Shown here one piece after another: positions 4,114-64,000 of a stretch of DNA of 64,000 nt (positions are counted from its first letter, which is position 1; every line of letters begins with the position of its first letter). The position numbers and the translations under genes are program-made. This stretch comes from Escherichia coli (GTDB lineage: Bacteria; Pseudomonadota; Gammaproteobacteria; Enterobacterales; Enterobacteriaceae). The notes beneath the pieces are model-generated. The model saw only the letters and a program-made list of their open reading frames with translations, did not search any database and was not told where the DNA came from. The DNA is taken from assembly GCF_030013205.1 (NCBI RefSeq), contig NZ_CP122648.1; one strand, given 5' to 3'.

Positions 4114-4319
4114 AAAAAAAAGCACCGCAATTAGGCGGTGCTACATTAATCACTATGGACAGACAGGGTAAATGTACAGGAAGTGAAAAAAGGTAGCTTT
4201 GCTACCATGGTCTGAATCGCAGACCAATTGCAAACACAACAACACAACATCACAACCGTAAGCCAAAAGTTCACCAGAACACGCATTCCGATAAAACTTT
4301 TCGTTCCGGCTCAGGAAGT
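4114..4319 (-). ncRNA. gcvB: GcvB small regulatory RNA, divergent from gcvA
   Basis: Reverse complement reads ACTTCCTGAGCCGGAACGAAAAG...; contains the G/U-rich GTTGTGATGTTGTGTTGTTGTGTTTG region and ends in hairpin agcaccgcctaattgcggtgct plus U-run; matches recalled GcvB sequence. Confidence 0.85.
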
Positions 4320-22489: not shown

Positions 22490-22857
22490 GTCGACAGGGA
22501 GTCAGACAACGAAGTGAACATCAGGATGATGACACTTCTGAAGGACACACCAGGATGGTGTTTCAGGGAAAGGCTTCTGGATGAAGCGAAGAGGATGACG
22601 CAGGACGCGTTAAAGGACACCTCCAGGATGGAGAATGAGAACCGGTCAGGATGATTCGGTGGGTCAGGAAGGCCAGGGACACTTCAGGATGAAGTATCAC
22701 ATCGGGGTGGTGTGAGCAGGAAGCAATAGTTCAGGATGAACGATTGGCCGCAAGGCCAGAGGAAAAGTTGTCAAGGATGAGCAGGGAGCAACAAAAGTAG
22801 CTGGAATGCTGCGAAACGAACCGGGAGCACTGTGAATACAGTGCTCCCTTTTTTTAT
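22490..22857 (+). ncRNA. csrB: CsrB, CsrA-sequestering small RNA
   Basis: About 370 nt with numerous CAGGATG / AGGA repeats; ends with hairpin gggagcactgtgaatacagtgctccc plus T-run; 5' end approximate. Confidence 0.9.
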
Positions 22858-22900
22858 TCCTGCTATTCTTCGCGGCAGTTTTTCTTATTGAGGTTGCTTT

Positions 22901-49729: not shown

Positions 49730-50486
49730 AGCCGAACCGGATGCCGGAATGCTGGCGGAAAAAGAGTGGCAGGCGGCGGCTCAGGGTAATAGCGGACCGG
49801 ATGTTTCGCTTCTGCGAAGTTTACTCGGTGCTGATGAACAGGCTGCCGCCGCGCTGCTGTTGACGCAGAGAAAAAACGGTACGTCGATGTCTTTAACCGC
49901 GTTGAGCATGGGGGATGAACGGGCGTTGCACTGGCTGCGCTATCTCATGGCTCATGGGTTTGAGGAAGCTGTATTGCTGGAGACGGCGGCAGATCTGCGC
50001 TTTGCGCCGGAATTTGTCGCTCGCCATATTGCCGAATGGCAGTACCAGAATCCGCTGGATCTGATAATTACCGGCTGCCAAAGCAGCGAAGGGCAGAATG
50101 GGCAAACGCCATTTTTGCTGGCGGAAATGCTGGGCTGGCCCTGCTTCACCCAGGTGGAGCGTTTTACTCTCGACGCGCCGTTTATCACCCTTGAACAGCG
50201 TACTGAAAACGGGCTGCGCTGTTGCCGGGTTCGCTTGCCTGCGGTGATTGCCGTGCGTCAGTGCGGTGAAGTGGCCTTGCCAGTACCGGGAATGCGTCAG
50301 CGAATGGCGGCGGGGAAAGCAGAAATTATCCGTAAAACTGTTGCTGCCGAATCGCCAGCGATGCAGTGTCGGCAACTGGCAAGAGCAGAGCAACAACGCG
50401 GAGCGACGCTGATTGATGGGCAAACGGTAGCAGAAAAAGCGCAAAAGCTATGGCAGGACTATTTACGCCAAAGGATGCAGCCATGA
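49707..50486 (+). CDS. ygcR: electron transfer flavoprotein beta-subunit-like (FixA-like)
   Basis: Start set at MNILLAF (ATG 49707, GGAGG RBS); overlaps ygcS end. Confidence 0.8.
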   Translation: MNILLAFKAEPDAGMLAEKEWQAAAQGNSGPDVSLLRSLLGADEQAAAALLLTQRKNGTSMSLTALSMGDERALHWLRYLMAHGFEEAVLLETAADLRFAPEFVARHIAEWQYQNPLDLIITGCQSSEGQNGQTPFLLAEMLGWPCFTQVERFTLDAPFITLEQRTENGLRCCRVRLPAVIAVRQCGEVALPVPGMRQRMAAGKAEIIRKTVAAESPAMQCRQLARAEQQRGATLIDGQTVAEKAQKLWQDYLRQRMQP

Positions 50487-51343
50487 ATCTCGCAATTGTG
50501 ACAATAAATCAGGAGAATGCCGCAATAGCGAGCTGGCTGGCAGAACAGGATTTCAGCGGTTGTACCCTGGCACACTGGCAGATTGAACCTCAGCCCGTAG
50601 TGGCGGAACAGGTGCTGGATGCGCTGGTGGAACAGTGGCAGCGAACGCCAGCGGACGTTGTTCTCTTTCCGCCGGGAACGTTTGGTGATGAACTGTCGAC
50701 CCGGCTGGCCTGGCGTTTACATGGTGCAAGCATCTGCCAGGTGACTTCGTTAGATATTTCAACCGTAAGCGTGCGCAAATCCCACTGGGGAAATGCGCTA
50801 ACGGCGACGCTGCAAACAGAAAAACGCCCGCTATGCCTTTCCCTGGCGCGTCAGGCGGGAGCAGCGAAAAACGCCACGTTGCCCTCTGGTATGCAGCAAC
50901 TGAAAATTGTCCCAGGTGCGCTTCCCGACTGGCTGGTTAGCATAGAGAATCTGAAAAATGTTAGCCGCGACCCATTAGCTGAAGCCAGACGGGTGCTGGT
51001 GGTGGGGCAGGGCGGAGAGGCAGATAACCAGGAAATCGCTATGCTGGCAGAAAAGCTGGGAGCCGAAGTGGGCTACAGTCGGGCACGAGTGATGAACGGT
51101 GGCGTTGATGCCGAAAAAGTGATTGGTATTTCCGGACATCTGCTGGCACCTGAGGTGTGTATTGTTGTTGGCGCTTCCGGCGCAGCAGCGTTAATGGCGG
51201 GCGTCCGCAATAGCAAGTTTGTGGTGGCGATTAATCATGACGCCAGCGCGGCGGTATTTTCACAGGCAGATGTTGGCGTGGTTGATGACTGGAAAGCGGT
51301 GCTGGAGGCACTGGTGACAAACATTCACGCAGATTGCCAATAA
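50483..51343 (+). CDS. ygcQ: electron transfer flavoprotein alpha-subunit-like (FixB-like)
   Basis: Start set at MNLAIV (ATG 50483) overlapping ygcR stop as ATGA. Confidence 0.8.
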   Translation: MNLAIVTINQENAAIASWLAEQDFSGCTLAHWQIEPQPVVAEQVLDALVEQWQRTPADVVLFPPGTFGDELSTRLAWRLHGASICQVTSLDISTVSVRKSHWGNALTATLQTEKRPLCLSLARQAGAAKNATLPSGMQQLKIVPGALPDWLVSIENLKNVSRDPLAEARRVLVVGQGGEADNQEIAMLAEKLGAEVGYSRARVMNGGVDAEKVIGISGHLLAPEVCIVVGASGAAALMAGVRNSKFVVAINHDASAAVFSQADVGVVDDWKAVLEALVTNIHADCQ

Positions 51344-51391
51344 CGTGCAGCCGGATGATCCTGCCTACGGTTCTGGGCTGGGGACTTGTAA

Positions 51392-51424
51392 GCCTGATAA
51401 GACGCGTCAAGCGTCGCATCAGGC
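51392..51424. repeat. REP-like palindromic unit between convergent ygcQ and ygcP
   Basis: gcctgataagacgcgtcaagcgtcgcatcaggc. Confidence 0.55.
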
Positions 51425-51489
51425 GCTGAATGTCGGATGTGGCGTGCAGCCTACAAATCACACAAATTCAATTCGTTACGATTATCCCG

Positions 51490-52065
51490 TCAAAGCAATT
51501 TTTTCGCTAGCGTCCAGACCCCGGTATTCGTGGTGGAAAGCGCCACAACACCCGCGTTAATCGCATTACGCGCATCTTCTTCATCGCACACCAGCCCGCC
51601 GGCAATCAGCGGTTGGCGGATTTTCTCCGTCACCCAGCCCAGCACTTTGGGCATACAGCCTGGCAGGATCTCAATACAATCCGGATTCGATTGCGCAACT
51701 TGCTTATCAATGTTGTGAAACGAAATTGAATCAACAATAAACAGGCGATGAATACAGAAAAAACCTTCCGCTCTTGCCGCTTTCAACATTGAGGCTTTGG
51801 TACTGATAATGCCGTCCGCCTCAGTCACCAGTTTCAAAAACTGAATCACCACTTCTTTATTTGACGCGCCTTCCAGCAAATCAACATGAATAAAAGCATA
51901 TTTTCCGGCGTTCTTAATCTTTTTAACGATATTACTGATGGTGCAGATATTGCCGTACAACACGGAAATAAACTGGCATTCAGAGTCGATTGCCAGTTGC
52001 AGGCTGGCATTATCTTTAACGGCAGCAATCACCGGATTCTGGCGGAGCAGGTGTAAGAGGGGCAT
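51490..52065 (-). CDS. ygcP: GlpP-family glycerol-3-phosphate-responsive antiterminator homolog
   Basis: 191-aa ORF; family assignment from recognised sequence (G3P-responsive RNA-binding antiterminator family). Confidence 0.8.
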   Translation of the reverse strand: MPLLHLLRQNPVIAAVKDNASLQLAIDSECQFISVLYGNICTISNIVKKIKNAGKYAFIHVDLLEGASNKEVVIQFLKLVTEADGIISTKASMLKAARAEGFFCIHRLFIVDSISFHNIDKQVAQSNPDCIEILPGCMPKVLGWVTEKIRQPLIAGGLVCDEEDARNAINAGVVALSTTNTGVWTLAKKLL

Positions 52066-52081
52066 AAATTATCCTTATTAT

Positions 52082-52342
52082 TTATCCAAAACGGTAGGTG
52101 ATGCCGAATCCGGAAGGCGGATAGCGCCACTGTTGTAGTGTTGATTCGTCGCACAGCAAACGGCAGGTGCCACACTCCAGGCAGCCGCGATAATCAACGC
52201 GTAAGTCACCTTCCGGTGTGAGCGAAAAAAGACCAGCCGGACAAGCGTTAATCAACCGTTGTACCGTCTGACGCTCAACGGAGTCAGCCGGAACAATGTG
52301 CGGCGCATCGGCAACGCGCCAGAGATTACGGGCTACAGACAT
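52082..52342 (-). CDS. ygcO: ferredoxin-like protein (FixX-like)
   Basis: Start set at MSVARN (ATG 52340-52342, CAGGAG RBS); Cys cluster CxxCxxC; ORF-track start is an upstream GTG. Confidence 0.8.
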   Translation of the reverse strand: MSVARNLWRVADAPHIVPADSVERQTVQRLINACPAGLFSLTPEGDLRVDYRGCLECGTCRLLCDESTLQQWRYPPSGFGITYRFG

Positions 52343-53604
52343 CGCAGACTCCTGATAACATCGCCCGCCAGATGCCACAGGCCGTGACGACGTAAATGAC
52401 GCCAGAATAACTGGCGCAGCGGTGGAACAGGTTTATCACCCTGATCCCATAAATCGCGGGAAATATCCTGCATTAACGCAGGCCACGCACGGTACCATCC
52501 AGGGCGTTGCAAAAGCGCCGGAACATGCTGATAACGTTGTAGAACATCCCATAGCAGGCTGCGCTCGACGTTGTGATGATAAAGCGCAAACAGATTTTGC
52601 GGCTCGCGGTGCTGGCAGGCGCTTATCAGCGTTTGTGCCGCCGCCTGCGCGCCAGTTAGCGCCATATCCATGCCGCGCACGGAAATTCCGGTATTGACGC
52701 AACTGCGCAACGTATCGCCCACCAGCAGCCAGCCGTTACCGGCGTATTGCACCGGCATACTGTGCAAGCCACCTTCTGGCACCAGATGCGCACCATACTC
52801 CAGTGATTCCGTGTTTTTGATAAGCGGGCGCACTGCCGGATGCGTTTTAAAGCGAGCCAGCAGCTCGCATGCCGGAGCACGACTTTGCGTAAGGGAGGAG
52901 AGCGGGCAAACAATCCCTAACGAGAGCGTTTGTTGATTAGTATAAAGAAATGCGCCGCCGGGTAAGTCATCACAGATCCCGCCGCTGAACAGCAACGCTG
53001 CGCCTTCGTTATTCTCCAGATGAAAACGTTCTTCAATAGCGGATGTTTCCAGCGACAGCACTTCTTTGATTCCTAACGCCATTGATTCGCCAGCAGGACG
53101 AGTCACTAACCCGTGACGTTCAGCCAGGACGCTGTTGGCACCTTCTGCCAGCACCACATAACGGGCGCGGAGAATATCGTCACCACAAATGACACCACAC
53201 ACCCTGCCGTTTTCTTCATACAGCGCATCCACCGTCGCACCAGGGATGCATTCGACACCTTCTTTTTCGGCTTCGGCAACCAGCCACGGATCGAACCGTG
53301 CACGTAATACACTCCAGGATTCACCGCCGGGCTGTAAGCTGGAAAACGTCGTTGCGCCATCCGGCGTTAGCAGAGAAAGGCTTTCGTGAGTGATGCGTCG
53401 TTCAAGAGGCGCGGTCAGATGAAATTGTGGGAGGAGTTCCGCGAGCGCCTGGGTATATAAACGCCCGCCGGAAAGATTTTTGCTGCCGGGGATTTCAGCG
53501 CGTTCCAGTAACAAAACGGATAAACCCGCTCGCGCGCAGCGTAACGCGCAAGCGGTGCCTGCAATACCGGCACCAATAATAATAATGTCGCAGTCGTCTT
53601 CCAT
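52333..53604 (-). CDS. ygcN: FAD-dependent oxidoreductase (FixC / ETF-QO-like)
   Basis: Start set at MEDDCDIIIIGAGIAG (ATG 53602-53604); GxGxxG FAD motif. Confidence 0.8.
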   Translation of the reverse strand: MEDDCDIIIIGAGIAGTACALRCARAGLSVLLLERAEIPGSKNLSGGRLYTQALAELLPQFHLTAPLERRITHESLSLLTPDGATTFSSLQPGGESWSVLRARFDPWLVAEAEKEGVECIPGATVDALYEENGRVCGVICGDDILRARYVVLAEGANSVLAERHGLVTRPAGESMALGIKEVLSLETSAIEERFHLENNEGAALLFSGGICDDLPGGAFLYTNQQTLSLGIVCPLSSLTQSRAPACELLARFKTHPAVRPLIKNTESLEYGAHLVPEGGLHSMPVQYAGNGWLLVGDTLRSCVNTGISVRGMDMALTGAQAAAQTLISACQHREPQNLFALYHHNVERSLLWDVLQRYQHVPALLQRPGWYRAWPALMQDISRDLWDQGDKPVPPLRQLFWRHLRRHGLWHLAGDVIRSLRCL

Positions 53605-53681
53605 GTCATGCCCCAGATATCCAGAACACAACACCCTAACATAGCGTTACTTAAGGGAAATTGACCGCCGACACACTCTTA

Positions 53682-54047
53682 TCATTCGCCGCGATAGATG
53701 CAACCTGCGGTGCAGGTTTCTTTCACCATAACCGCACTTAACAGCGGAACAACCGGTTTAACCTGATCCCAAATCCATTTTGCTAAAACCTCGCTGGTCG
53801 GGTTTTCCAGGCCAGGAATATCATTGAGATAATAGTGATCGAGGCGCTCGTAGGTTGGCTTAAACGCCGCTTTTAGTTCAGCGAAATCGATAATCCAGCC
53901 CGTATGCGGATCGACTTCCCCGGTAATTTCCAGTCGCACCATAAAGGAATGCCCGTGCAGGCGACCACATTTATGCCCTTCCGGGACGTGTGGTAAGCGG
54001 TGAGCGGCTTCGAAGGTGAAATCTTTAAATAACGTGGTGGACATCAT
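53682..54047 (-). CDS. queD: 6-carboxy-5,6,7,8-tetrahydropterin synthase
   Basis: Start set at MMSTTLF (ATG 54045-54047); ORF-track start is an upstream TTG extension. Confidence 0.9.
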
Positions 54048-54362
54048 AATTTCTCTACATGACGATAAAACCGCCGTAGAGTACCGGAAAGGCTGTTTTT
54101 TCGCATTATCTAAAACGACTTTGTTGCGCAAAATCGCTGATTTATCTTAATGATTGGCTAAATTCATTTGTTTTTCATTGGGTTGGTTAATCTGTTTTGT
54201 TGTTAAAGACTATTGCTAAAACAGGTTAGTCGATTTGGTTATTAGTTATCGCTATCCCGTCTTTAATCCACACCGTTCACCCCGTTAACCTTACCTTCTC
54301 TTCTGTTTTATGGGCGCTGACAGGGCGCAGAAACAGCTTTGCTTACTGGAACATAACGACGC

Positions 54363-56162
54363 ATGACGACACAGGTCCCACCTTCCGCGTTGCTTCCGTT
54401 GAACCCGGAGCAACTGGCACGCCTTCAGGCGGCCACGACCGATTTAACTCCCACCCAGCTTGCCTGGGTTTCTGGCTATTTCTGGGGCGTGCTCAACCAG
54501 CAGCCTGCTGCGCTTGCAGCGACGCCAGCGCCCGCCGCAGAAATGCCGGGTATAACTATTATCTCTGCTTCGCAAACCGGCAATGCGCGCCGGATTGCTG
54601 AAGCATTACGCGATGATTTATTGACGGCAAAACTGAACGTTAAGCTGGTGAACGCGGGCGACTATAAATTCAAACAAATCGCCAGCGAAAAACTGCTTAT
54701 CGTGGTGACGTCAACGCAAGGGGAAGGGGAACCGCCGGAAGAAGCCGTCGCGCTGCATAAGTTCCTGTTCTCCAAAAAAGCGCCGAAGCTGGAAAACACC
54801 GCGTTTGCCGTGTTTAGCCTCGGCGATAGTTCTTATGAATTTTTCTGCCAGTCCGGGAAAGATTTTGACAGTAAGCTGGCGGAACTGGGCGGTGAACGCC
54901 TGCTCGACCGTGTCGATGCCGACGTTGAATACCAGGCTGCTGCCAGCGAGTGGCGCGCCCGCGTGGTTGATGCGCTTAAATCGCGTGCGCCTGTCGCGGC
55001 ACCTTCGCAATCCGTCGCTACTGGCGCGGTAAATGAAATCCACACCAGCCCGTACAGCAAAGACGCGCCGCTGGTGGCGAGCCTCTCTGTTAACCAGAAA
55101 ATTACCGGGCGTAACTCTGAAAAAGACGTTCGCCATATCGAAATTGACTTAGGTGACTCGGGCCTGCGTTACCAGCCGGGTGACGCGCTGGGTGTCTGGT
55201 ATCAGAACGATCCGGCACTGGTGAAAGAACTTGTCGAACTGCTGTGGCTGAAAGGTGATGAACCTGTCACCGTTGAGGGCAAAACCCTGCCGCTGAACGA
55301 AGCGCTACAGTGGCACTTCGAACTGACCGTCAACACCGCCAACATTGTTGAGAACTATGCCACGCTTACCCGCAGCGAAACGCTGCTGCCGCTGGTGGGC
55401 GATAAAGCGAAGTTACAGCATTACGCCGCGACGACGCCGATTGTCGACATGGTGCGTTTCTCTCCGGCGCAACTGGATGCCGAAGCGCTGATTAACCTGC
55501 TGCGCCCGCTGACCCCGCGCCTGTATTCCATCGCCTCCTCGCAGGCGGAAGTCGAGAACGAAGTACACGTCACCGTTGGCGTGGTGCGTTACGACGTGGA
55601 AGGCCGCGCCCGTGCCGGTGGTGCCTCCAGCTTCCTCGCGGACCGCGTGGAAGAAGAGGGCGAAGTCCGCGTCTTTATCGAACATAACGATAACTTCCGC
55701 CTGCCAGCCAATCCGGAAACCCCGGTGATTATGATTGGCCCAGGCACCGGCATCGCGCCGTTCCGCGCCTTTATGCAGCAGCGCGCTGCTGACGAAGCGC
55801 CGGGTAAAAACTGGTTGTTCTTTGGCAACCCGCACTTTACGGAAGATTTCCTCTACCAGGTGGAGTGGCAGCGCTACGTGAAAGAAGGCGTATTGAGCCG
55901 CATCGATCTTGCCTGGTCGCGCGACCAAAAAGAAAAAGTTTATGTACAAGACAAACTGCGCGAACAGGGCGCGGAGCTGTGGCGCTGGATCAATGACGGT
56001 GCCCGCATTTATGTCTGCGGCGACGCTAATCGCATGGCGAAAGACGTTGAGCAGGCACTTCTGGAAGTGATTGCCGAATTTGGTGGCATGGACACCGAAG
56101 CGGCGGATGAATTTTTAAGTGAGCTGCGCGTAGAGCGCCGTTATCAGCGAGATGTCTACTAA
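54363..56162 (+). CDS. cysJ: sulfite reductase [NADPH] flavoprotein alpha subunit
   Basis: 599-aa ORF with flavodoxin and FAD/NADPH reductase domains. Confidence 0.95.
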
Positions 56163-57874
56163 TGAGCGAAAAACATCCAGGGCCTTTAGTGGTCGAAGGA
56201 AAACTGACAGACGCCGAGCGCATGAAGCTTGAAAGCAACTACCTGCGCGGCACCATTGCGGAAGATTTAAACGACGGTCTGACCGGCGGCTTTAAGGGCG
56301 ACAACTTCCTGCTGATCCGCTTCCACGGCATGTATCAGCAGGATGACCGCGACATCCGCGCCGAACGTGCTGAACAGAAGCTGGAGCCACGTCATGCAAT
56401 GCTGTTGCGCTGTCGTCTGCCGGGTGGGGTGATTACCACCAAACAGTGGCAGGCGATCGATAAATTTGCCGGTGAAAACACCATCTATGGCAGCATTCGC
56501 CTGACCAACCGCCAGACGTTTCAGTTCCACGGCATTCTGAAAAAGAACGTCAAACCGGTGCACCAGATGCTGCACTCGGTCGGTCTTGATGCGCTGGCGA
56601 CTGCTAACGACATGAACCGTAACGTACTCTGCACCTCGAACCCTTACGAGTCGCAGCTACACGCGGAAGCGTATGAATGGGCGAAGAAAATCTCTGAACA
56701 TCTGCTGCCGCGTACCCGCGCGTATGCGGAGATCTGGCTCGATCAGGAAAAAGTCGCCACCACCGATGAAGAACCGATCCTCGGTCAGACTTATTTGCCG
56801 CGTAAATTCAAAACCACGGTAGTGATCCCGCCGCAGAACGATATCGATCTGCATGCCAACGACATGAACTTCGTGGCAATCGCCGAAAACGGCAAGCTGG
56901 TGGGCTTTAACCTGTTGGTGGGCGGTGGGCTTTCTATCGAACACGGCAACAAGAAAACCTACGCCCGCACGGCGAGTGAGTTTGGCTATCTGCCGCTGGA
57001 GCATACGCTGGCGGTGGCAGAAGCCGTCGTGACGACTCAGCGCGACTGGGGTAACCGTACCGATCGTAAAAATGCCAAAACCAAATACACGCTGGAGCGC
57101 GTGGGGGTTGAGACGTTTAAAGCGGAAGTGGAGCGTCGCGCGGGGATCAAATTTGAACCGATCCGTCCATATGAGTTCACCGGACGCGGCGATCGTATTG
57201 GCTGGGTTAAAGGCATTGATGATAACTGGCACCTGACGCTGTTTATCGAAAATGGTCGCATCCTTGATTATCCTGGGCGTCCGCTGAAAACCGGCCTGCT
57301 GGAGATCGCGAAGATCCACAAAGGCGATTTCCGCATTACGGCGAACCAGAATCTGATCATCGCCGGTGTGCCGGAAAGCGAGAAAGCGAAGATCGAGAAG
57401 ATCGCCAAAGAGAGCGGGTTAATGAATGCCGTCACGCCGCAGCGTGAAAACTCAATGGCCTGCGTGTCATTCCCGACTTGCCCGCTGGCGATGGCGGAAG
57501 CGGAGCGTTTCCTGCCGTCTTTTATCGACAACATCGATAATTTAATGGCGAAACATGGTGTCAGCGATGAGCATATCGTGATGCGTGTAACAGGCTGCCC
57601 GAACGGTTGTGGTCGCGCGATGCTGGCGGAAGTGGGCCTGGTGGGTAAAGCGCCGGGTCGCTACAACCTGCATCTTGGCGGCAACCGCATTGGGACACGT
57701 ATCCCACGGATGTATAAAGAAAACATCACCGAGCCGGAAATCCTGGCGTCGCTTGATGAACTGATAGGGCGCTGGGCGAAAGAGCGCGAAGCGGGTGAAG
57801 GCTTCGGCGACTTTACGGTGCGTGCGGGCATCATTCGCCCGGTGCTCGATCCGGCGCGCGATTTGTGGGATTAA
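56162..57874 (+). CDS. cysI: sulfite reductase [NADPH] hemoprotein beta subunit
   Basis: 570-aa ORF; start overlaps cysJ stop (TAATG). Confidence 0.95.
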
Positions 57875-57894
57875 CCATCAGCCCGGTCTTGTAG

Positions 57895-57926
57895 GCCTGA
57901 TAAGACGCGTGAGCGTCGCATCAGGC
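57895..57926. repeat. REP-like palindromic unit between cysI and cysH
   Basis: gcctgataagacgcgtgagcgtcgcatcaggc. Confidence 0.55.
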
Positions 57927-57947
57927 AAGGCAAACTGTGAGGAACTT

Positions 57948-58682
57948 ATGTCCAAACTCGATCTAAACGCCCTGAACGAACTGCCGAAGGTAGATCGCAT
58001 TCTGGCGCTGGCGGAAACTAACGCCGAACTGGAAAAACTGGACGCTGAAGGCCGCGTTGCCTGGGCGCTGGATAATCTGCCCGGTGAATATGTACTTTCT
58101 TCCAGCTTTGGCATTCAGGCGGCGGTGAGCCTGCATCTGGTGAATCAGATTCGCCCGGATATTCCAGTGATCCTCACCGATACGGGTTACTTGTTCCCGG
58201 AAACCTACCGCTTTATTGACGAGTTAACGGACAAACTCAAGCTCAACCTGAAAGTGTACCGCGCTACCGAAAGCGCCGCCTGGCAGGAAGCACGTTACGG
58301 AAAACTATGGGAGCAGGGCGTTGAAGGCATTGAAAAGTACAATGACATCAACAAAGTCGAACCGATGAACCGGGCGCTGAAAGAACTGAATGCGCAAACG
58401 TGGTTTGCTGGCCTGCGCCGCGAACAATCCGGCAGTCGCGCCAATTTACCGGTGCTGGCAATTCAGCGTGGCGTATTTAAAGTGCTGCCGATTATCGACT
58501 GGGATAACCGAACGATATATCAGTATCTGCAAAAACATGGCCTGAAATATCATCCATTATGGGACAAAGGATATTTATCCGTCGGTGATACCCATACAAC
58601 CCGTAAATGGGAACCCGGCATGGCGGAAGAAGAAACGCGTTTCTTTGGCTTAAAAAGGGAATGTGGGCTGCACGAAGGGTAA
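57948..58682 (+). CDS. cysH: phosphoadenosine phosphosulfate (PAPS) reductase
   Basis: Start set at [15 protein letters not shown] (ATG 57948); ORF-track start 57795 runs through the REP element. Confidence 0.9.
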
Positions 58683-58849
58683 AATATCGTACCGCTTAAT
58701 AAACGTCTCTGTCTGAAAAGATGGGGGCGTTTTTATTTTGCGAGCAGCATTCCTGATTTTAAACGTGAACGCCGCTGGAAGAATTATCAGGTATAGAATG
58801 GCGTTGGGTGCTTGAGGCTGTCTGGCGTTAAGCATTCGCGAGGTTCCAG

Positions 58850-58954
58850 ATGGACAAAAGCCCCAGGCGATATTTCTATCAACCTGAGGCCAGCGTTCGA
58901 ACCCAAACAACTCGAATGTTAGTCTCTTCTTTGCAGGGAGGCAAGACATGCTGA
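58850..58954 (+). CDS. mok-like 34-codon upstream reading frame coupled to the hok-like ORF (hypothetical)
   Basis: ATG 58850; stop TGA 58952-58954 lies just after the hok-like ATG (58948). Confidence 0.3.
58859..58909 (-). ncRNA. candidate Sok-like antisense RNA (hypothetical)
   Basis: On - strand: TTGCCT -35 (58939-58944), 17-bp spacer, TAACAT -10 (58916-58921), then a stem-loop (gccccagg / cctgaggc) followed by TTTTG; antisense to the mok-like frame. Confidence 0.25.
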
Positions 58955-59100
58955 CAAAATATGCCCTTGTGGCAATCATAGTGCTGTGTTTTACAGTACT
59001 GGGATTCACGCTGATGGTAGGCGACTCGTTGTGTGAGTTGAGTATCAGAGAACGTGGTATGGAGTTTAAGGCAGTTCTCGCTTACGAATCGAAGAAGTAG
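58948..59100 (+). CDS. Hok/Gef-family type I toxin, 50 aa (hokX-like position between cysH and cas3)
   Basis: [50 protein letters not shown]: hydrophobic N-terminus, SLCE(L/I) and AxxAYES motifs shared with Hok/Gef; AGGGAGG RBS 6 nt upstream; GC hairpin cgcgggg/ccccgcg just downstream; below the ORF-track size cut-off. Confidence 0.75.
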
Positions 59101-59294
59101 CCACCACGCGGGGGTAAAACCCCGCGTATTGAATTGTGATGGTTTGGTCTCCTGCACCCTTTTTTAATTTATATTGTTTATGTGAATATTATGCCTATGT
59201 TTATTATTCATATATATTACGGATGAAAATTATTTGATTATTCATAATGTAAATATTTTATTGAACGATATATGTCACAGATAATTTTTAATAT

Positions 59295-61994
59295 ATGCGT
59301 AAATATCCTTTAAGTTTACTGAAGGATAAAAATATTGTGACTTTTTTTGATTTCTGGGGAAAAACCCGACGCGGCGAGAAAGACGGGGGCGACGACTATC
59401 ACCTTCTTTGCTGGCATTCGCTGGATGTAGCCGCGATGGGCTATTTAATGGTTAAAAGCAATTGCTTCGGGCTGGTTGACTATTTTCGTCAACTAGGTTT
59501 CGCTGATACGGAGCAGGCAGCACAATTTTTCGCCTGGCTATTGTGCTGGCACGATACTGGAAAATTTGCCCGCTCTTTTCAGCAACTTTACCTGCACCCA
59601 CAACTCAAGGTTCCGGAAGGCGCAAGAAAGAATTACGAAAAGATCTCTCATTCAACGCTGGGCTACTGGCTGTGGCATCATTATTTAAGTGAATACGAAG
59701 AATTGCTTCCTTCATCTTCACTCTCTCCGCGCAAACTTAAACGGGTGATGGAGATGTGGATGCCCATGACTACCGGGCATCATGGTCGGCCCCCTGACCG
59801 TATTGATGAACTGGATAATTTTCTGCCTGAAGACAAAGCTGCCGCACGAGATTTTCTCCTTGAAATCAAGGTACTGTTTCCGCTCATCGAGATCCCCGCA
59901 TTCTGGGATGATGACGAGGGCATTGAACTTTTAAAACAACTTTCCTGGTATATCTCTGCAACCGTCGTACTCGCAGACTGGACGGGATCGTCAACGCGGT
60001 TTTTTCCACGCGTTGCACAGGCAATGGATATTAAAGATTACTGGCAGAAGGCTTTAGTTCAGGCTCAAAACGCCTTAACCGTCTTTCCTCCAAAAGCACA
60101 AACCGCGCCTTTCACCGGAATTAATACACTGTTTCCTTTTATTGAGCACCCGACACCGTTACAGCAAAAGGTGCTGGATCTGGATATCAGCCAGCCAGGA
60201 CCGCAGTTATTTATTCTGGAAGATGTGACTGGCGCAGGTAAAACAGAAGCGGCGCTTATCCTGGCGCACAGGTTGATGGCTGCGAGGAAAGCACAGGGTT
60301 TGTTTTTTGGCCTGCCAACAATGGCAACGGCCAATGCCATGTACGATCGGTTGGTCAAAACCTGGCTTGCTTTCTATTCTCCAGAATCTCGCCCCAGCCT
60401 GGTGCTGGCACACAGTGCCCGCACATTAATGGATCGCTTTAATGAATCACTCTGGTCCGGTGATTTAGTCGGGTCAGAAGAACCGGATGAACAAACGTTC
60501 AGTCAGGGATGTGCGGCCTGGTTTGCCGACAGTAACAAGAAGGCGTTGCTGGCTGAAATTGGCGTCGGCACTTTGGATCAGGCGATGATGGCGGTGATGC
60601 CGTTCAAACATAATAATCTGCGGCTTCTGGGGCTGAGTAATAAAATCCTGCTGGCTGATGAGATCCACGCCTGTGACGCTTACATGTCATGCATTCTTGA
60701 AGGGCTGATCGAGCGGCAGGCGCGTGGCGGAAACAGCGTCATTTTGCTTTCTGCCACGTTATCTCAACAGCAGCGCGACAAACTCGTTGCTGCCTTTGCG
60801 CGTGGTACAGAGGGCCAGCAAGAAGCTCCGTTCCTGGAAAAGGATGATTACCCCTGGCTGACGCACGTTACGAAATCCGATGTGCATTCACACCGGGTAG
60901 CGACGCGCAAAGACGTTGAGCGTAGCGTGAGCGTGGGTTGGCTTCATAGCGAACAAGAATGTATTGCGCGTATCGAATCGGCAGTAAGTCAGGGGAAATG
61001 CATCGCCTGGATCCGGAATTCTGTCGATGACGCTATTAAGGTTTATCGTCAGTTGCTTGCCCGCGGCGTCATTCCTGCTTCCAGCCTTTCTCTGTTTCAT
61101 AGCCGCTTTGCTTTTAGCGATCGCCAGCGAATTGAAACGGAAACGCTGGCACGCTTCGGTAAAAGTTGTAGTTTACAGAGATCATCGCAACTCATTGTTT
61201 TTACACAAGTAATTGAACAAAGTGTGGATATTGACCTGGACGAAATGATATCCGACCTGGCCCCTGTTGATTTGCTGATCCAACGGGCGGGGCGATTACA
61301 GCGGCATATCCGCGATATTAATGGTCAGTTAAAGCGTGACGGAAAAGACGAGCGTTCCCCTCCTGAATTGCTGATTCTGGCCCCCGTCTGGGACGACGCT
61401 CCAGGTGACGAATGGTTCGGCAGTGCCATGCGTAACAGTGCATATGTCTATCCCGATCATGGACGAATCTGGCTGACGCAGCGTGTACTGCGTGAGCAAG
61501 GCGCGATTCAAATGCCACACGCAGCCCGCCTTCTTATTGAATCAGTCTACGGTGAGGACGTGGTAATGCCGGAAGGATTTGCCCGCAGCGAGCAGGAACA
61601 AGTGGGCAAATATTACTGCGATCGCGCAATGGCTAAAAAGTTTGTGCTGAACTTCAGGCCCGGCTATGCCGCCAATATCAACGATTACCTCCCGGAAAAA
61701 CTGTCGACACGTCTGGCTGAGGAGTCTGTTTCCCTGTGGCTGTCTACCTGTATTGCCGGTGTGGTGAAGCCTTATGCCAACGGTGCTCACGCATGGGAAA
61801 TGAGCGTTGTCAGAGTGCGTCGAAGCTGGTGGAAAAAACATCGGGATGAGTTTTCTTTACTGGAAGGGGATGCGTTCAGGCAGTGGTGCATTGAACAGCG
61901 GCAAGAGCCGGAGATGGCAAACGTGATTTTAGTCACCGATGACGAAAGTTGCGGGTATTCGGCTATGGAAGGATTGACTGGCAAGGTTGGTTGA
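59295..61994 (+). CDS. cas3: Cas3 HD-nuclease/helicase, type I-E (variant differing from my recollection of K-12 Cas3)
   Basis: 899-aa ORF: N-terminal HD motif (LLCWHDTGKF), Walker A (TGAGKTEA), DEIH box (LLADEIHACDAY); very AT-rich region immediately upstream. Confidence 0.85.
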   Translation: MRKYPLSLLKDKNIVTFFDFWGKTRRGEKDGGDDYHLLCWHSLDVAAMGYLMVKSNCFGLVDYFRQLGFADTEQAAQFFAWLLCWHDTGKFARSFQQLYLHPQLKVPEGARKNYEKISHSTLGYWLWHHYLSEYEELLPSSSLSPRKLKRVMEMWMPMTTGHHGRPPDRIDELDNFLPEDKAAARDFLLEIKVLFPLIEIPAFWDDDEGIELLKQLSWYISATVVLADWTGSSTRFFPRVAQAMDIKDYWQKALVQAQNALTVFPPKAQTAPFTGINTLFPFIEHPTPLQQKVLDLDISQPGPQLFILEDVTGAGKTEAALILAHRLMAARKAQGLFFGLPTMATANAMYDRLVKTWLAFYSPESRPSLVLAHSARTLMDRFNESLWSGDLVGSEEPDEQTFSQGCAAWFADSNKKALLAEIGVGTLDQAMMAVMPFKHNNLRLLGLSNKILLADEIHACDAYMSCILEGLIERQARGGNSVILLSATLSQQQRDKLVAAFARGTEGQQEAPFLEKDDYPWLTHVTKSDVHSHRVATRKDVERSVSVGWLHSEQECIARIESAVSQGKCIAWIRNSVDDAIKVYRQLLARGVIPASSLSLFHSRFAFSDRQRIETETLARFGKSCSLQRSSQLIVFTQVIEQSVDIDLDEMISDLAPVDLLIQRAGRLQRHIRDINGQLKRDGKDERSPPELLILAPVWDDAPGDEWFGSAMRNSAYVYPDHGRIWLTQRVLREQGAIQMPHAARLLIESVYGEDVVMPEGFARSEQEQVGKYYCDRAMAKKFVLNFRPGYAANINDYLPEKLSTRLAEESVSLWLSTCIAGVVKPYANGAHAWEMSVVRVRRSWWKKHRDEFSLLEGDAFRQWCIEQRQEPEMANVILVTDDESCGYSAMEGLTGKVG

Positions 61995-62091
61995 GATGCC
62001 TGCGACAGGGCTCTCTGAATAGTTGATACACCGAAAAGGATGGAATGATGGACAACCGACCAGGGATGGTCTTTTTTACGAGAGGATGCGT

Positions 62092-63654
62092 ATGAACTCG
62101 TTTTCACTTCTGACAACCCCGTGGTTGCCCGTTCGTTATAAAGACGGAACGACAGGCAAACTGGCGCCAGTCGATCTGGCGGATGAAAATGTTGTCGATA
62201 TCGCTGCGCCGCGGGCAGATCTCCAGGGGGCGGCATGGCAGTTTTTGCTGGGACTATTACAAACCAGCTTCGCGCCAAAAGATCAACGTCGTTGGGATGA
62301 TATCTGGGAAGACGGACTGGAAGCTGAAAAGCTACGGGAAGCATTGCTGTCATTAGACCATGCTTTCCAGTTCGGGCCAGATTCACCTTCATTTATGCAG
62401 GATTTTGAGGCGCTCACGGGAGATAAAGTTCCGGTCGCTTCGCTACTGCCTGAGATTCCCGGCGTTCAAACAACAAAGTTTAATAAAGACCACTTTATCA
62501 AGCGTGGTGTAACGGAATACCTGTGCCCACATTGTTCTGCGTTAGCTCTGTTCTCCCTACAGTTAAATGCGCCGGCAGGCGGCAAAGGCTATCGCACCGG
62601 TTTACGCGGCGGTGGGCCGATGACCACGCTGATTGAATTACAGGAATATCAGGGCAATCAACAAACTCCCTTGTGGCGCAAACTATGGCTCAACGTGATG
62701 CCGCAGGATGAAGCCGACTTACCGCTACCCAAAAAATTTGACGATCTGATTTTCCCCTGGCTAGGCCCGACGCGTACCAGCGAACTGGCCGGTGCGGTGG
62801 TAACCCATGATCAGGTCAATAAACTCCAGGCGTACTGGGGAATGCCGCGGCGTATACGTATTGATTTTAATACCACGACAGTCGGCAACTGCGATATTTG
62901 CGACGAGCAGAACGACGCGCTCCTGAGCCTGATGACGACCAAAAATTATGGTGCCAATTATGCCATGTGGCAGCATCCCTTAACGCCTTACCGTGTACCA
63001 CTTAAAGAGGGGGGCGAGTTTTACTCCGTTAAACCACAACCGGGCGGTTTAATCTGGCGCGACTGGTTAGGCCTTATCGAAACGGGTAAATCAGAAAACA
63101 ATACGGAACTTCCCGCGCTGGTGGTGAAACTCTTTAATGCCAGCAGTCTGAAACAGGCAAAAGTGGGCCTATGGGGATTTGGTTATGATTTTGACAACAT
63201 GAAAGCGCGCTGTTGGTACGAACACCATTTCCCGCTACTGCTCAATAAAAAAGAAGGCCAGATACCGAAGCTGCGGCTGGCTGCGCAAACGGCTTCACGG
63301 ATTCTGAGTCTGTTACGGAGTGCATTGAAAGAAGCATGGTTCTCCGATCCAAAAGGTGCAAGGGGTGATTTCAGTTTTGTGGATATCGACTTCTGGAACA
63401 AAACTCAGCATCGCTTCCTGAGGTTAGTGCGCCAAATTGAAGAAGGTCAGGATGCGGATGAATTACTCGGCAAATGGCAAAAGGAAATTTGGTTATTCGC
63501 GCGTCAGGATTTTGACGAGCGTGTATTCACTAATCCTTATGAGCCCGTTGATTTGAAACGCGTCATGACCGCGCGCAAGAAATATTTTACAACATCGGCG
63601 GAGAAGCAAAGTGCTAAAGCCGCCTGGGAGAAAAAGCAGGAGGCTGCTGAATGA
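62092..63654 (+). CDS. cse1: Cse1 (CasA), Cascade large subunit, type I-E
   Basis: Start set at MNSFSLLTTPWLPVRY (ATG 62092, GAGG 6 nt upstream); GLRGG motif; same architecture as K-12 CasA but different sequence. Confidence 0.8.
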   Translation: MNSFSLLTTPWLPVRYKDGTTGKLAPVDLADENVVDIAAPRADLQGAAWQFLLGLLQTSFAPKDQRRWDDIWEDGLEAEKLREALLSLDHAFQFGPDSPSFMQDFEALTGDKVPVASLLPEIPGVQTTKFNKDHFIKRGVTEYLCPHCSALALFSLQLNAPAGGKGYRTGLRGGGPMTTLIELQEYQGNQQTPLWRKLWLNVMPQDEADLPLPKKFDDLIFPWLGPTRTSELAGAVVTHDQVNKLQAYWGMPRRIRIDFNTTTVGNCDICDEQNDALLSLMTTKNYGANYAMWQHPLTPYRVPLKEGGEFYSVKPQPGGLIWRDWLGLIETGKSENNTELPALVVKLFNASSLKQAKVGLWGFGYDFDNMKARCWYEHHFPLLLNKKEGQIPKLRLAAQTASRILSLLRSALKEAWFSDPKGARGDFSFVDIDFWNKTQHRFLRLVRQIEEGQDADELLGKWQKEIWLFARQDFDERVFTNPYEPVDLKRVMTARKKYFTTSAEKQSAKAAWEKKQEAAE

Positions 63655-64000
63655 GTATTGTAAAAGAGGAGCACAAAGCCACGCTGCGTAAATGGCACGA
63701 AGAGTTGCAGGAAAAACGCGGCAATCGTGCCAGTCTGCGGCGTAGCACAACGGTTAATGATGTTTGTCTGTCAGAAGGGTTTCGTTCTCTGCTGATGCAG
63801 ACCCACACGTTGTGGAAAATTGAATCACAGGAGTGGCGTTTTACCGCACTGGCGCTGGTTGCCGCCGTTGCCGCCAATGTAAAAGCCATTGATGAACGGC
63901 AGCCTTTTGCCGCGCAGTTGGCGGCGGTAATGTCTGAGGGGCGTTTTACTCGCCTGTCGGCAGTCAAAACGCCGGATGAATTACTGCGCCAGTTACGTCG
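63651..64000 (+). CDS. cse2: Cse2 (CasB), Cascade small subunit; 3' end beyond window
   Basis: ATG 63651 overlaps cse1 stop (ATGA) after AGGAGG; ORF open to window end. Confidence 0.7.
   Translation, partial: MSIVKEEHKATLRKWHEELQEKRGNRASLRRSTTVNDVCLSEGFRSLLMQTHTLWKIESQEWRFTALALVAAVAANVKAIDERQPFAAQLAAVMSEGRFTRLSAVKTPDELLRQLR

Follow-up and report, generated by a model that had tools for sequence, protein, structure and literature searches.

The type I-E CRISPR (short palindromic repeats that are clustered and regularly interspaced) systems of Escherichia coli fall into two classes. From a set of 131 strains, two clusters of cas genes were defined, cas-E1 and cas-E2 (Almendros, Mojica, Díez-Villaseñor, Guzmán and García-Martínez, mBio 2014, 5:e00767-13; PMC3903273). 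The first, the major and ancestral one, forms a group together with E. albertii and a Salmonella outgroup; its guanine-plus-cytosine (GC) content is 53.5%, while the minor cas-E2 cluster, at 45.6% GC, is found in K-12, most carriers of phylogroup A, S. dysenteriae Sd197 and E. fergusonii. A leader (L1 for E1, L2 for E2) and an upstream intergenic region (IG4 and IG5, respectively) are specific to each cluster, and E2 was inferred to be a later, insertion sequence (IS)-mediated modular replacement of E1 (PMC3903273). Two I-E sequence variants were seen again in a 2025 survey of urological strains (PMC12736100). Here, we analyze positions 59,101 to 64,000 of a 64,000-nucleotide (nt) stretch of E. 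coli DNA (contig NZ_CP122648.1; the whole stretch is called the window below), in which an earlier note, made from the letters and their open reading frames (ORFs), had recognized the type I-E genes cas3 and cse1 and the beginning of cse2.

Results

A common cas-E1 operon between cysH and iap

The 4.9-kb stretch almost certainly covers the promoter-proximal part of the type I-E operon in the E. coli chromosome, in its common cas-E1 variant, lying between cysH and iap in the ancestral arrangement A. When the stretch was compared with 5426 complete E. coli genomes, at a coverage of at least 80%, an E1-type gene set turned up at this locus in 2416 of them (about 45%), including O157:H7 and O111:H8. 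Nucleotide identity to these genomes ranges from 89 to 100%, with most at 90-96% and only 23 at 99% or above. The K-12-type counterpart is present in 1118 of the 5426 genomes, many of which are laboratory K-12 derivatives. All 3315 match places in the search with the E1 stretch are chromosomal, as are those of the K-12-type counterpart. The gene set is not absent from E. coli genomes other than this one, and we encountered no evidence contradicting the cas-E1 identification.

A comparison with O157:H7, as the earlier note had proposed, gave 93.4% nucleotide identity to strain F7349 over the 4.9 kb and 94% protein identity for Cas3. The locus order (cysH-hok/sok-cas3...cas2-CRISPR2.1-iap), the gene order and the gene lengths (Cas3 899 aa, Cse1 520 aa) are all those of the published cas-E1 cluster as found, for example, in O157:H7, and the differences between the two are allelic only. 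The earlier note's statement that E. coli harbors two divergent I-E cas gene sets was therefore correct, and the locus in the window is the cas-E1 of Almendros et al. (2014). The two-variant situation, the locations, the difference in GC content and the direction of replacement were all already published in that study.

Assignment to type I-E holds on the profile matches of all three proteins. Cas3 matches TIGR01596 (cas3_HD) over residues 38-233 with 87.7 bits (cutoff 43.45) and TIGR01587 (cas3_core) over residues 306-676 with 224.6 bits (cutoff 102.45) in NCBIfam, as well as Cas3_HD and Cas3-like_C_2 in Pfam. Cse1 reaches 607.3 bits with TIGR02547 (casA_cse1; cutoff 70) in a match that spans the whole profile (positions 1-504 of 504), and the 116 residues of Cse2 encoded in the window match TIGR02548 (casB_cse2) with 60.6 bits (cutoff 28.5). 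A search of PDB sequences with Cas3 returned 4Q2C (E=6e-80), which we take to be the Thermobaculum terrenum enzyme, and 4QQW (E=6e-63), with homology over about 750 residues; Cse1 is homologous to K-12 CasA in the PDB over its N-terminal 300 residues (E=2e-15). The solved type I-E structures, namely Cas3 (4Q2C, and 4QQW/6C66 from Thermobifida fusca) and E. coli Cascade (4QYZ, 4TVX and 5H9F), are distant relatives of the proteins described here, and none of the structures returned by the PDB sequence search is of an E1-type Cas3 or Cse1.

Divergence from the K-12 system

The note had judged Cas3 and Cse1 to be unlike the K-12 versions while carrying the expected motifs, and both observations stand up to alignment. 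With MG1655 as the K-12 reference, BLASTP gave 28.9% identity over 817 aa for Cas3 and 21.1% over 517 aa for Cse1, far from the high identity that would have contradicted the note. We took the remainder of the operon from the near-identical genome of E. coli K_EC180 (see below): full-length Cse2 has no significant BLASTP match to its K-12 counterpart, and identities are 30% for Cas7, 35% for Cas5 and 27% for Cas6e, as against 85% for Cas1 and 84% for Cas2. The flanking proteins are nearly invariant (CysH 99.6%, Iap 99.1%, CysD 100%). The K-12-type NCBIfam equivalogs are clearly missed, by Cas3 (PRK09694, 419.7 bits against a cutoff of 569) and by Cse1 (PRK09693, CasA, 100 bits against 576). 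At the DNA level, homology to K-12 stops at window position 58950, at the start of the hok ORF, and none is found from there to cas1, where it returns weakly (71%) before becoming strong in the array (94.7%).

Across this divergence the catalytic residues are retained. In the alignment of the two Cas3 proteins the HD pair (H86, D87), Walker A (G313, G315, K316, T317), the DExH box (D455, E456, H458; DEIH here, DEVH in K-12), the SAT motif (S486, A487, T488) and motif VI (Q663, R664, G666, R667) are invariant, and the GLRGG motif and two CxxC pairs of Cse1 align with those of K-12 CasA (PDB 4QYZ_A). The two systems therefore share their HD, superfamily 2 (SF2) helicase, GLRGG and zinc-cysteine motifs, along with subtype, chromosomal slot, gene order and a near-identical repeat. 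Since the interference proteins are 21-35% identical or undetectable, the adaptation proteins about 85% identical and the repeats at most one base apart, the interference module, by these comparisons, has been swapped wholesale, while the adaptation module (cas1, cas2) and the repeat were kept. The cas genes of this E1 allele have a GC content of 51.5%, and the whole window 50.7%; the K-12 set measured 45.6%, which equals the published E2 value.

Operon structure and CRISPR arrays

The features of the window are collected in Table 1. Positions 50101-64000 are the same as in E. coli K_EC180 (NZ_CP062203.1; swine, Korea) save for 2 mismatches in 13,900 nt, one of which alters codon 61 of Cas3 (V61 in the window, A61 in K_EC180). 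There, beyond the end of the window, the operon continues with cas7e-cas5e-cas6e-cas1e-cas2e, a 96-nt leader, an array, iap and cysDNC; the genes and adjacent array that the earlier note had expected to find by extending the contig are thus present in this record, with all eight cas genes intact. Compared with the leaders of three other E1 genomes, that of K_EC180 shows 96-100% identity, and it is visibly unlike that of K-12.

Table 1. Features of the cas-E1 locus and its surroundings in the window
Feature	Position	Strand	Basis
Distal CRISPR array (CRISPR-II / CRISPR2.3 position)	41979-42251	+	Pattern search
cysJ	54363-56162		ORF list
cysI	56162-57874		ORF list
cysH	end at 58682		ORF list
hok/sok, intact type I toxin-antitoxin locus in the cysH–cas3 interval	58806-59100	+	Rfam and ORF
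GC-rich hairpin ACGCGGGG-GTAAAA-CCCCGCGT (GGGG-N6-CCCC type), just 3' of the hok stop	59106-59127	+	Centroid fold, 8 base pairs
Variant-specific AT-rich intergenic region, adjoining the 5' side of cas3	59167-59294	+	GC content and homology breakpoint
cas3, 899 aa, HD nuclease fused to SF2 helicase, cas-E1 allele	59295-61994	+	ORF, NCBIfam, Pfam, PDB
cas3-cse1 spacer, 97 nt, 49.5% GC	61995-62091	+	
cse1/casA (cas8e), 520 aa, large Cascade subunit	62092-63654	+	NCBIfam, PDB alignment
cse2/casB (cas11e), first 116 codons (of 178), the rest lying past the window end	63651-64000	+	NCBIfam

The reading frame of cas3 is intact throughout. Its start codon is less certain than the frame: no Shine-Dalgarno sequence precedes the ATG at 59295, and an in-frame GTG at 59337, 14 codons downstream, follows AAGGA and is a possible alternative. 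For cse1, the longest ORF (62023-63654) would encode 543 aa from a TTG, but the RefSeq start in K_EC180 corresponds to the ATG at 62092, which has GAGAGG (62080-62085) six bases 5' of it. The ATG of cse2 overlaps the cse1 stop as ATGA, and the full casB gene of K_EC180 spans 537 nt (178 aa). A repeat search over 58600-64000 returned short chance matches and nothing else.

The note had also described the CRISPR repeat as the standard K-12-type 29-mer. That repeat, GAGTTCCCCGCGCCAGCGGGGATAAACCG, is real and exact, but it lies outside 59101-64000, in the distal array about 17 kb upstream of the cas3 region. This array, on which the cas operon acts in trans, holds four exact copies, one degenerate terminal repeat and four spacers of 32 nt; Tandem Repeats Finder did not report it, because the spacers differ, and it was recovered by a pattern search. 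The CRISPR-II leader and array are common to E1 carriers, E2 carriers and cas-less strains (Almendros et al., 2014; PMC3903273). Very AT-rich DNA lies on either side of the array in the window (41742-41987 and 42264-42760), and the downstream block contains the lowest GC content of the window, 14% at about 42378. In K_EC180 the array next to the cas genes (L002, 17853-18247) consists of 7 repeats separated by 6 spacers of 32 nt each, and its repeat, GTGTTCCCCGCGCCAGCGGGGATAAACCG, differs by one base from the distal, K-12 form (GTG... versus GAG...; GAGTTCC...).

Control of cas3 and the Cascade genes

The note had singled out the region immediately upstream of cas3 as very AT-rich and typical of H-NS-silenced promoters. 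Its composition is as described: GC content is 16.3% over 59160-59294 and 17.2% over 59167-59294, and only 95 of 63872 segments of 128 nt are as low or lower, placing the region among the two most AT-rich spots of the window. The H-NS part of the claim is only partly supported. E. coli genomes without this gene set match bases 1-66 of the query only, up to window position 59166, and variant-specific DNA therefore starts at about 59167, exactly at the onset of the AT-rich sequence. From there to 59294 the sequence is conserved at 87-99.5% among E1 strains, and includes a conserved GATAAT (59280-59285) ending 9 nt before the cas3 ATG. It presumably corresponds to IG4 of Almendros et al. (2014), with which it is equated by position only.

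We presume that 59167-59294 contains the cas3 promoter and control region and is a candidate H-NS target, and silencing of this stretch by H-NS is plausible. A GC content of 17% over 128 bp is the kind of sequence that H-NS prefers, and H-NS is said to control the cas promoters of K-12, as Pul and co-workers reportedly found in 2010. In S. Typhi, both cas3, described there as divergent from the Cascade operon, and the cse1 operon are silenced by H-NS (PMC8039139).

The arrangement downstream of cas3 also differs from that of K-12. There, the AT-rich stretch lies between cas3 and casA, in an interval of 414 bp with a GC content of 29.5%, which we take to be the site of the H-NS- and LeuO-controlled Pcas promoter, whereas in E1 the AT-rich stretch is upstream of cas3. 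We found no sigma-70-like promoter in 61700-62092. The only terminator-like element is a weak 5-bp hairpin with a T-run after it (62058-62081), and the fold of the cas3-cse1 gap is no better than that of shuffled sequences (z = +0.55). With less certainty than the identification, transcription of cas3 probably begins inside the AT-rich region, at a normally silent promoter that H-NS is likely to bind. Because the cas3-cse1 gap is short, not AT-rich, and devoid of any recognizable promoter or strong terminator, transcripts of cas3 may extend, in part at least, into the Cascade genes, which would set E1 apart from K-12. A possible, and tentative, model of E1 is that a single AT-rich control region 5' of cas3 would drive cas3 together with the Cascade genes, cas1 and cas2, perhaps starting from GATAAT with a leaderless or nearly leaderless cas3 mRNA.

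Several observations weigh against the regulation proposed here. There is no consensus sigma-70 promoter in 59167-59294, only weak 8/12 matches, and the H-NS motif TCGATAAATT has a single 8/10 match, a count that is uninformative. Our literature searches found no paper on H-NS at E. coli cas-E1. The Salmonella precedent is imperfect: in the one Salmonella locus compared here, that of serovar Senftenberg, cas3 is inverted across a divergent region of 357 bp and the interference proteins are only 35-56% identical to those of E1. Finally, the E1 gene bodies are genome-like at about 51% GC, compared with 45.6% for the K-12 set, so that spreading of H-NS over the genes is less to be expected than in K-12. 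A study of CRP and glycine cleavage at the cas3 promoter was set aside: it concerned MG1655 only, and hence has no bearing on E1.

The AT-rich stretch could instead be an ordinary weak or constitutive promoter, possibly leaderless, or mere AT-rich junction DNA that arrived with the cassette, without silencing by H-NS. The lack of a good -35/-10 pair, the position of GATAAT, the best -10-like hexamer, so close to the ATG, the missing Shine-Dalgarno sequence, the single weak H-NS motif match and the coincidence of the stretch with the homology breakpoint all suit this alternative. The base composition that H-NS is known to prefer, the silencing of cas3 in S. Typhi and the reported control of the K-12 promoters speak against it, and we regard it as possible but doubtful.

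Predicted activity and a phage P1 spacer

From the intact genes and motifs, read in light of established type I-E biochemistry and structures (K-12 and Thermobifida fusca), we infer that the encoded machinery is active as a type I-E interference system. In such a system, Cas6e would cut the array transcripts, and Cse1, two Cse2, six Cas7, Cas5 and Cas6e would assemble on each CRISPR RNA as Cascade. Cse1 would read the protospacer adjacent motif (PAM), upon which an R-loop would form, and would then recruit Cas3, whose HD domain would nick the displaced strand and degrade it while translocating 3'->5'. New spacers would be inserted by Cas1-Cas2.

One spacer lends indirect support to this. Spacer 2 of the distal array (42069-42100) is identical in 32/32 bases to coi, which encodes the C1 repressor inactivator and belongs to the immC region of phages P1, P7, phiW39 and SJ46, and the identity extends as far as the final G of the repeat. 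The P1 protospacer has ATG in front of it, in agreement with the AWG PAM consensus. This perfect match with an AWG-type PAM suggests past acquisition from a real E. coli phage. Searches of phage records with whole arrays were dominated by records that carry CRISPR arrays themselves, which look like bacterial contamination or mislabeled entries, and a whole-array search of phage records with the cas-adjacent array of K_EC180 found no phage protospacer.

A point against activity is that under laboratory conditions the I-E systems of E. coli usually stay silent. The locus may be intact and yet not operate as an immune system here: it could be permanently silent (cryptic), or it could have been retained for some function other than immunity, for instance gene regulation, a role that others have ascribed to the cas genes of Salmonella. 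The arrays are short, with 4 and 6 spacers, array turnover in E. coli I-E systems is slow and the K-12 system is silenced by H-NS, all of which speak for a non-operating system, as does the Cas-dependent regulation of porins and OmpR reported in S. Typhi (PMC8039139). Yet all eight genes are intact in K_EC180 with their catalytic motifs conserved, the coi spacer is perfect and its protospacer has an ATG PAM, and silence in the laboratory is compatible with induction in nature. We therefore consider a non-operating locus unlikely.

Variation and rearrangement of cas-E1

At the nucleotide level, the operon of the window and K_EC180 was compared segment by segment with three other E1 genomes. Identity is 93.6-96.2% in cas3, 82-96% in cse1, 85-97% in cse2, 94-99.9% in cas7 and 95-99.9% in cas5, compared with 95-99.5% in the flanking cys genes. 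The divergence is mosaic, indicates no separate variant, and fits the recombination and greater variability of the Cascade genes that have been described (PMC3903273). Although 21-29% identity to the K-12 proteins and the mere 23 genomes that match the 4.9 kb at 99% or above might suggest that cas3-cse1-cse2 is an exotic I-E import that recently displaced K-12-like genes in this strain or a small lineage, we reject this idea as extremely improbable on prevalence and GC content, given the presence of this set at one and the same chromosomal position in 2416 of 5426 genomes (O157:H7 and O111:H8 among them), a GC content (51.5%) that fits the genome (50.7%) where that of the K-12 set (45.6%) does not, a published phylogeny in which E1 is ancestral and the K-12 E2 set the replacement (PMC3903273), and a mosaic 4-7% nucleotide divergence from other E1 alleles that lies inside known E1 diversity.

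The type I-E locus of Salmonella Senftenberg NCTC10384 (NZ_LN868944.1) occupies the syntenic slot (cysJIH ... iap-like aminopeptidase - cysD) with the same eight genes, and is nearer to E1 than K-12 is (Cas3 44%, Cse1 45%, Cas7 56%, Cas1 83% identity to E1). Unlike in E1, its cas3 is on the opposite strand to cse1, the region between them has 37% GC, and sopD lies between cysH and cas3, with no hok/sok. K-12 Cas1 and Cas2 are nearer to those of Senftenberg (93% and 89%) than to those of E. coli E1 (85% and 84%). PLSDB lists the 728-kb Senftenberg record among its plasmids, together with several E. coli records of 4.8-4.9 Mb; all of these look chromosomal.

Rearranged E1 loci were also seen. 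E. coli F829 lacks cas7, cas5 and cas6e, and the ORF for a 322-aa 'Cas1' directly follows cse2 (L006, 14089-15057), indicating an internal deletion of Cascade genes. On the IncHI2A conjugative plasmid pIOMTU792 (NZ_LC542972.1; L008, 12001-24218), a chromosomal E1 segment adjoins ISEcp1-blaCTX-M-15. It comprises a 5'-truncated cse1, cse2, cas7, cas5, cas6e, cas1, cas2 and iap, without cas3, and the block interrupts a plasmid DUF6012 gene; it looks like an ISEcp1 transposition unit that captured cas genes. One chromosome with ISEcp1 inside the E1 operon also exists.

The hok/sok locus and neighboring features

Between cysH and cas3, the sok/mok region (58806-58963) matches Rfam RF01794 (sok) with 107.5 bits. 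It is followed by a Hok ORF of 50 aa (58948-59100), which has a HokA-like NCBIfam match (E=9e-16) below the cutoff and is annotated by RefSeq as 'Hok/Gef family protein' in K_EC180. hok/sok was found in every strain except E2 carriers (PMC3903273), and its presence marks the cas-E1, arrangement A layout. In K-12 only sokX is left, without a hok gene, because the cas-E2 module took the place of all sequence from the hok start codon on.

Many genomes align to the query only from base 11 (window position 59111), within the hairpin that follows hok, and in F829 an IS421 (IS186-like) transposase gene is located between hok and cas3 exactly at the hairpin (L006, 7834-8946). Judged from these alignments, the hairpin is a hot spot for IS insertion in other strains. 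Elsewhere in the window, CsrB (22499-22858, + strand) and GcvB (4114-4319, - strand) give full-length Rfam matches, as expected in this part of the E. coli chromosome.

Discussion

Nearly all mechanistic and regulatory work on 'E. coli CRISPR' has used the minority K-12 (E2) set, while E1 is present in twice as many complete genomes. Because the E1 interference proteins are only 21-35% identical to those of K-12 and the control regions are laid out differently, the rules established in K-12 are not simply transferable. For E1 regulation, for the PAM and priming rules, and for sensitivity to anti-CRISPR proteins in O157:H7 and other pathogens, extrapolation from K-12 is not safe. If the control region of E1 were a single one, 5' of cas3, and cas3 were co-transcribed with the Cascade genes, then Cas3 would not be separately limiting, unlike in K-12 hns mutants, and the K-12 rules, with Pcas placed between cas3 and casA, would fail for the majority of E. 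coli.

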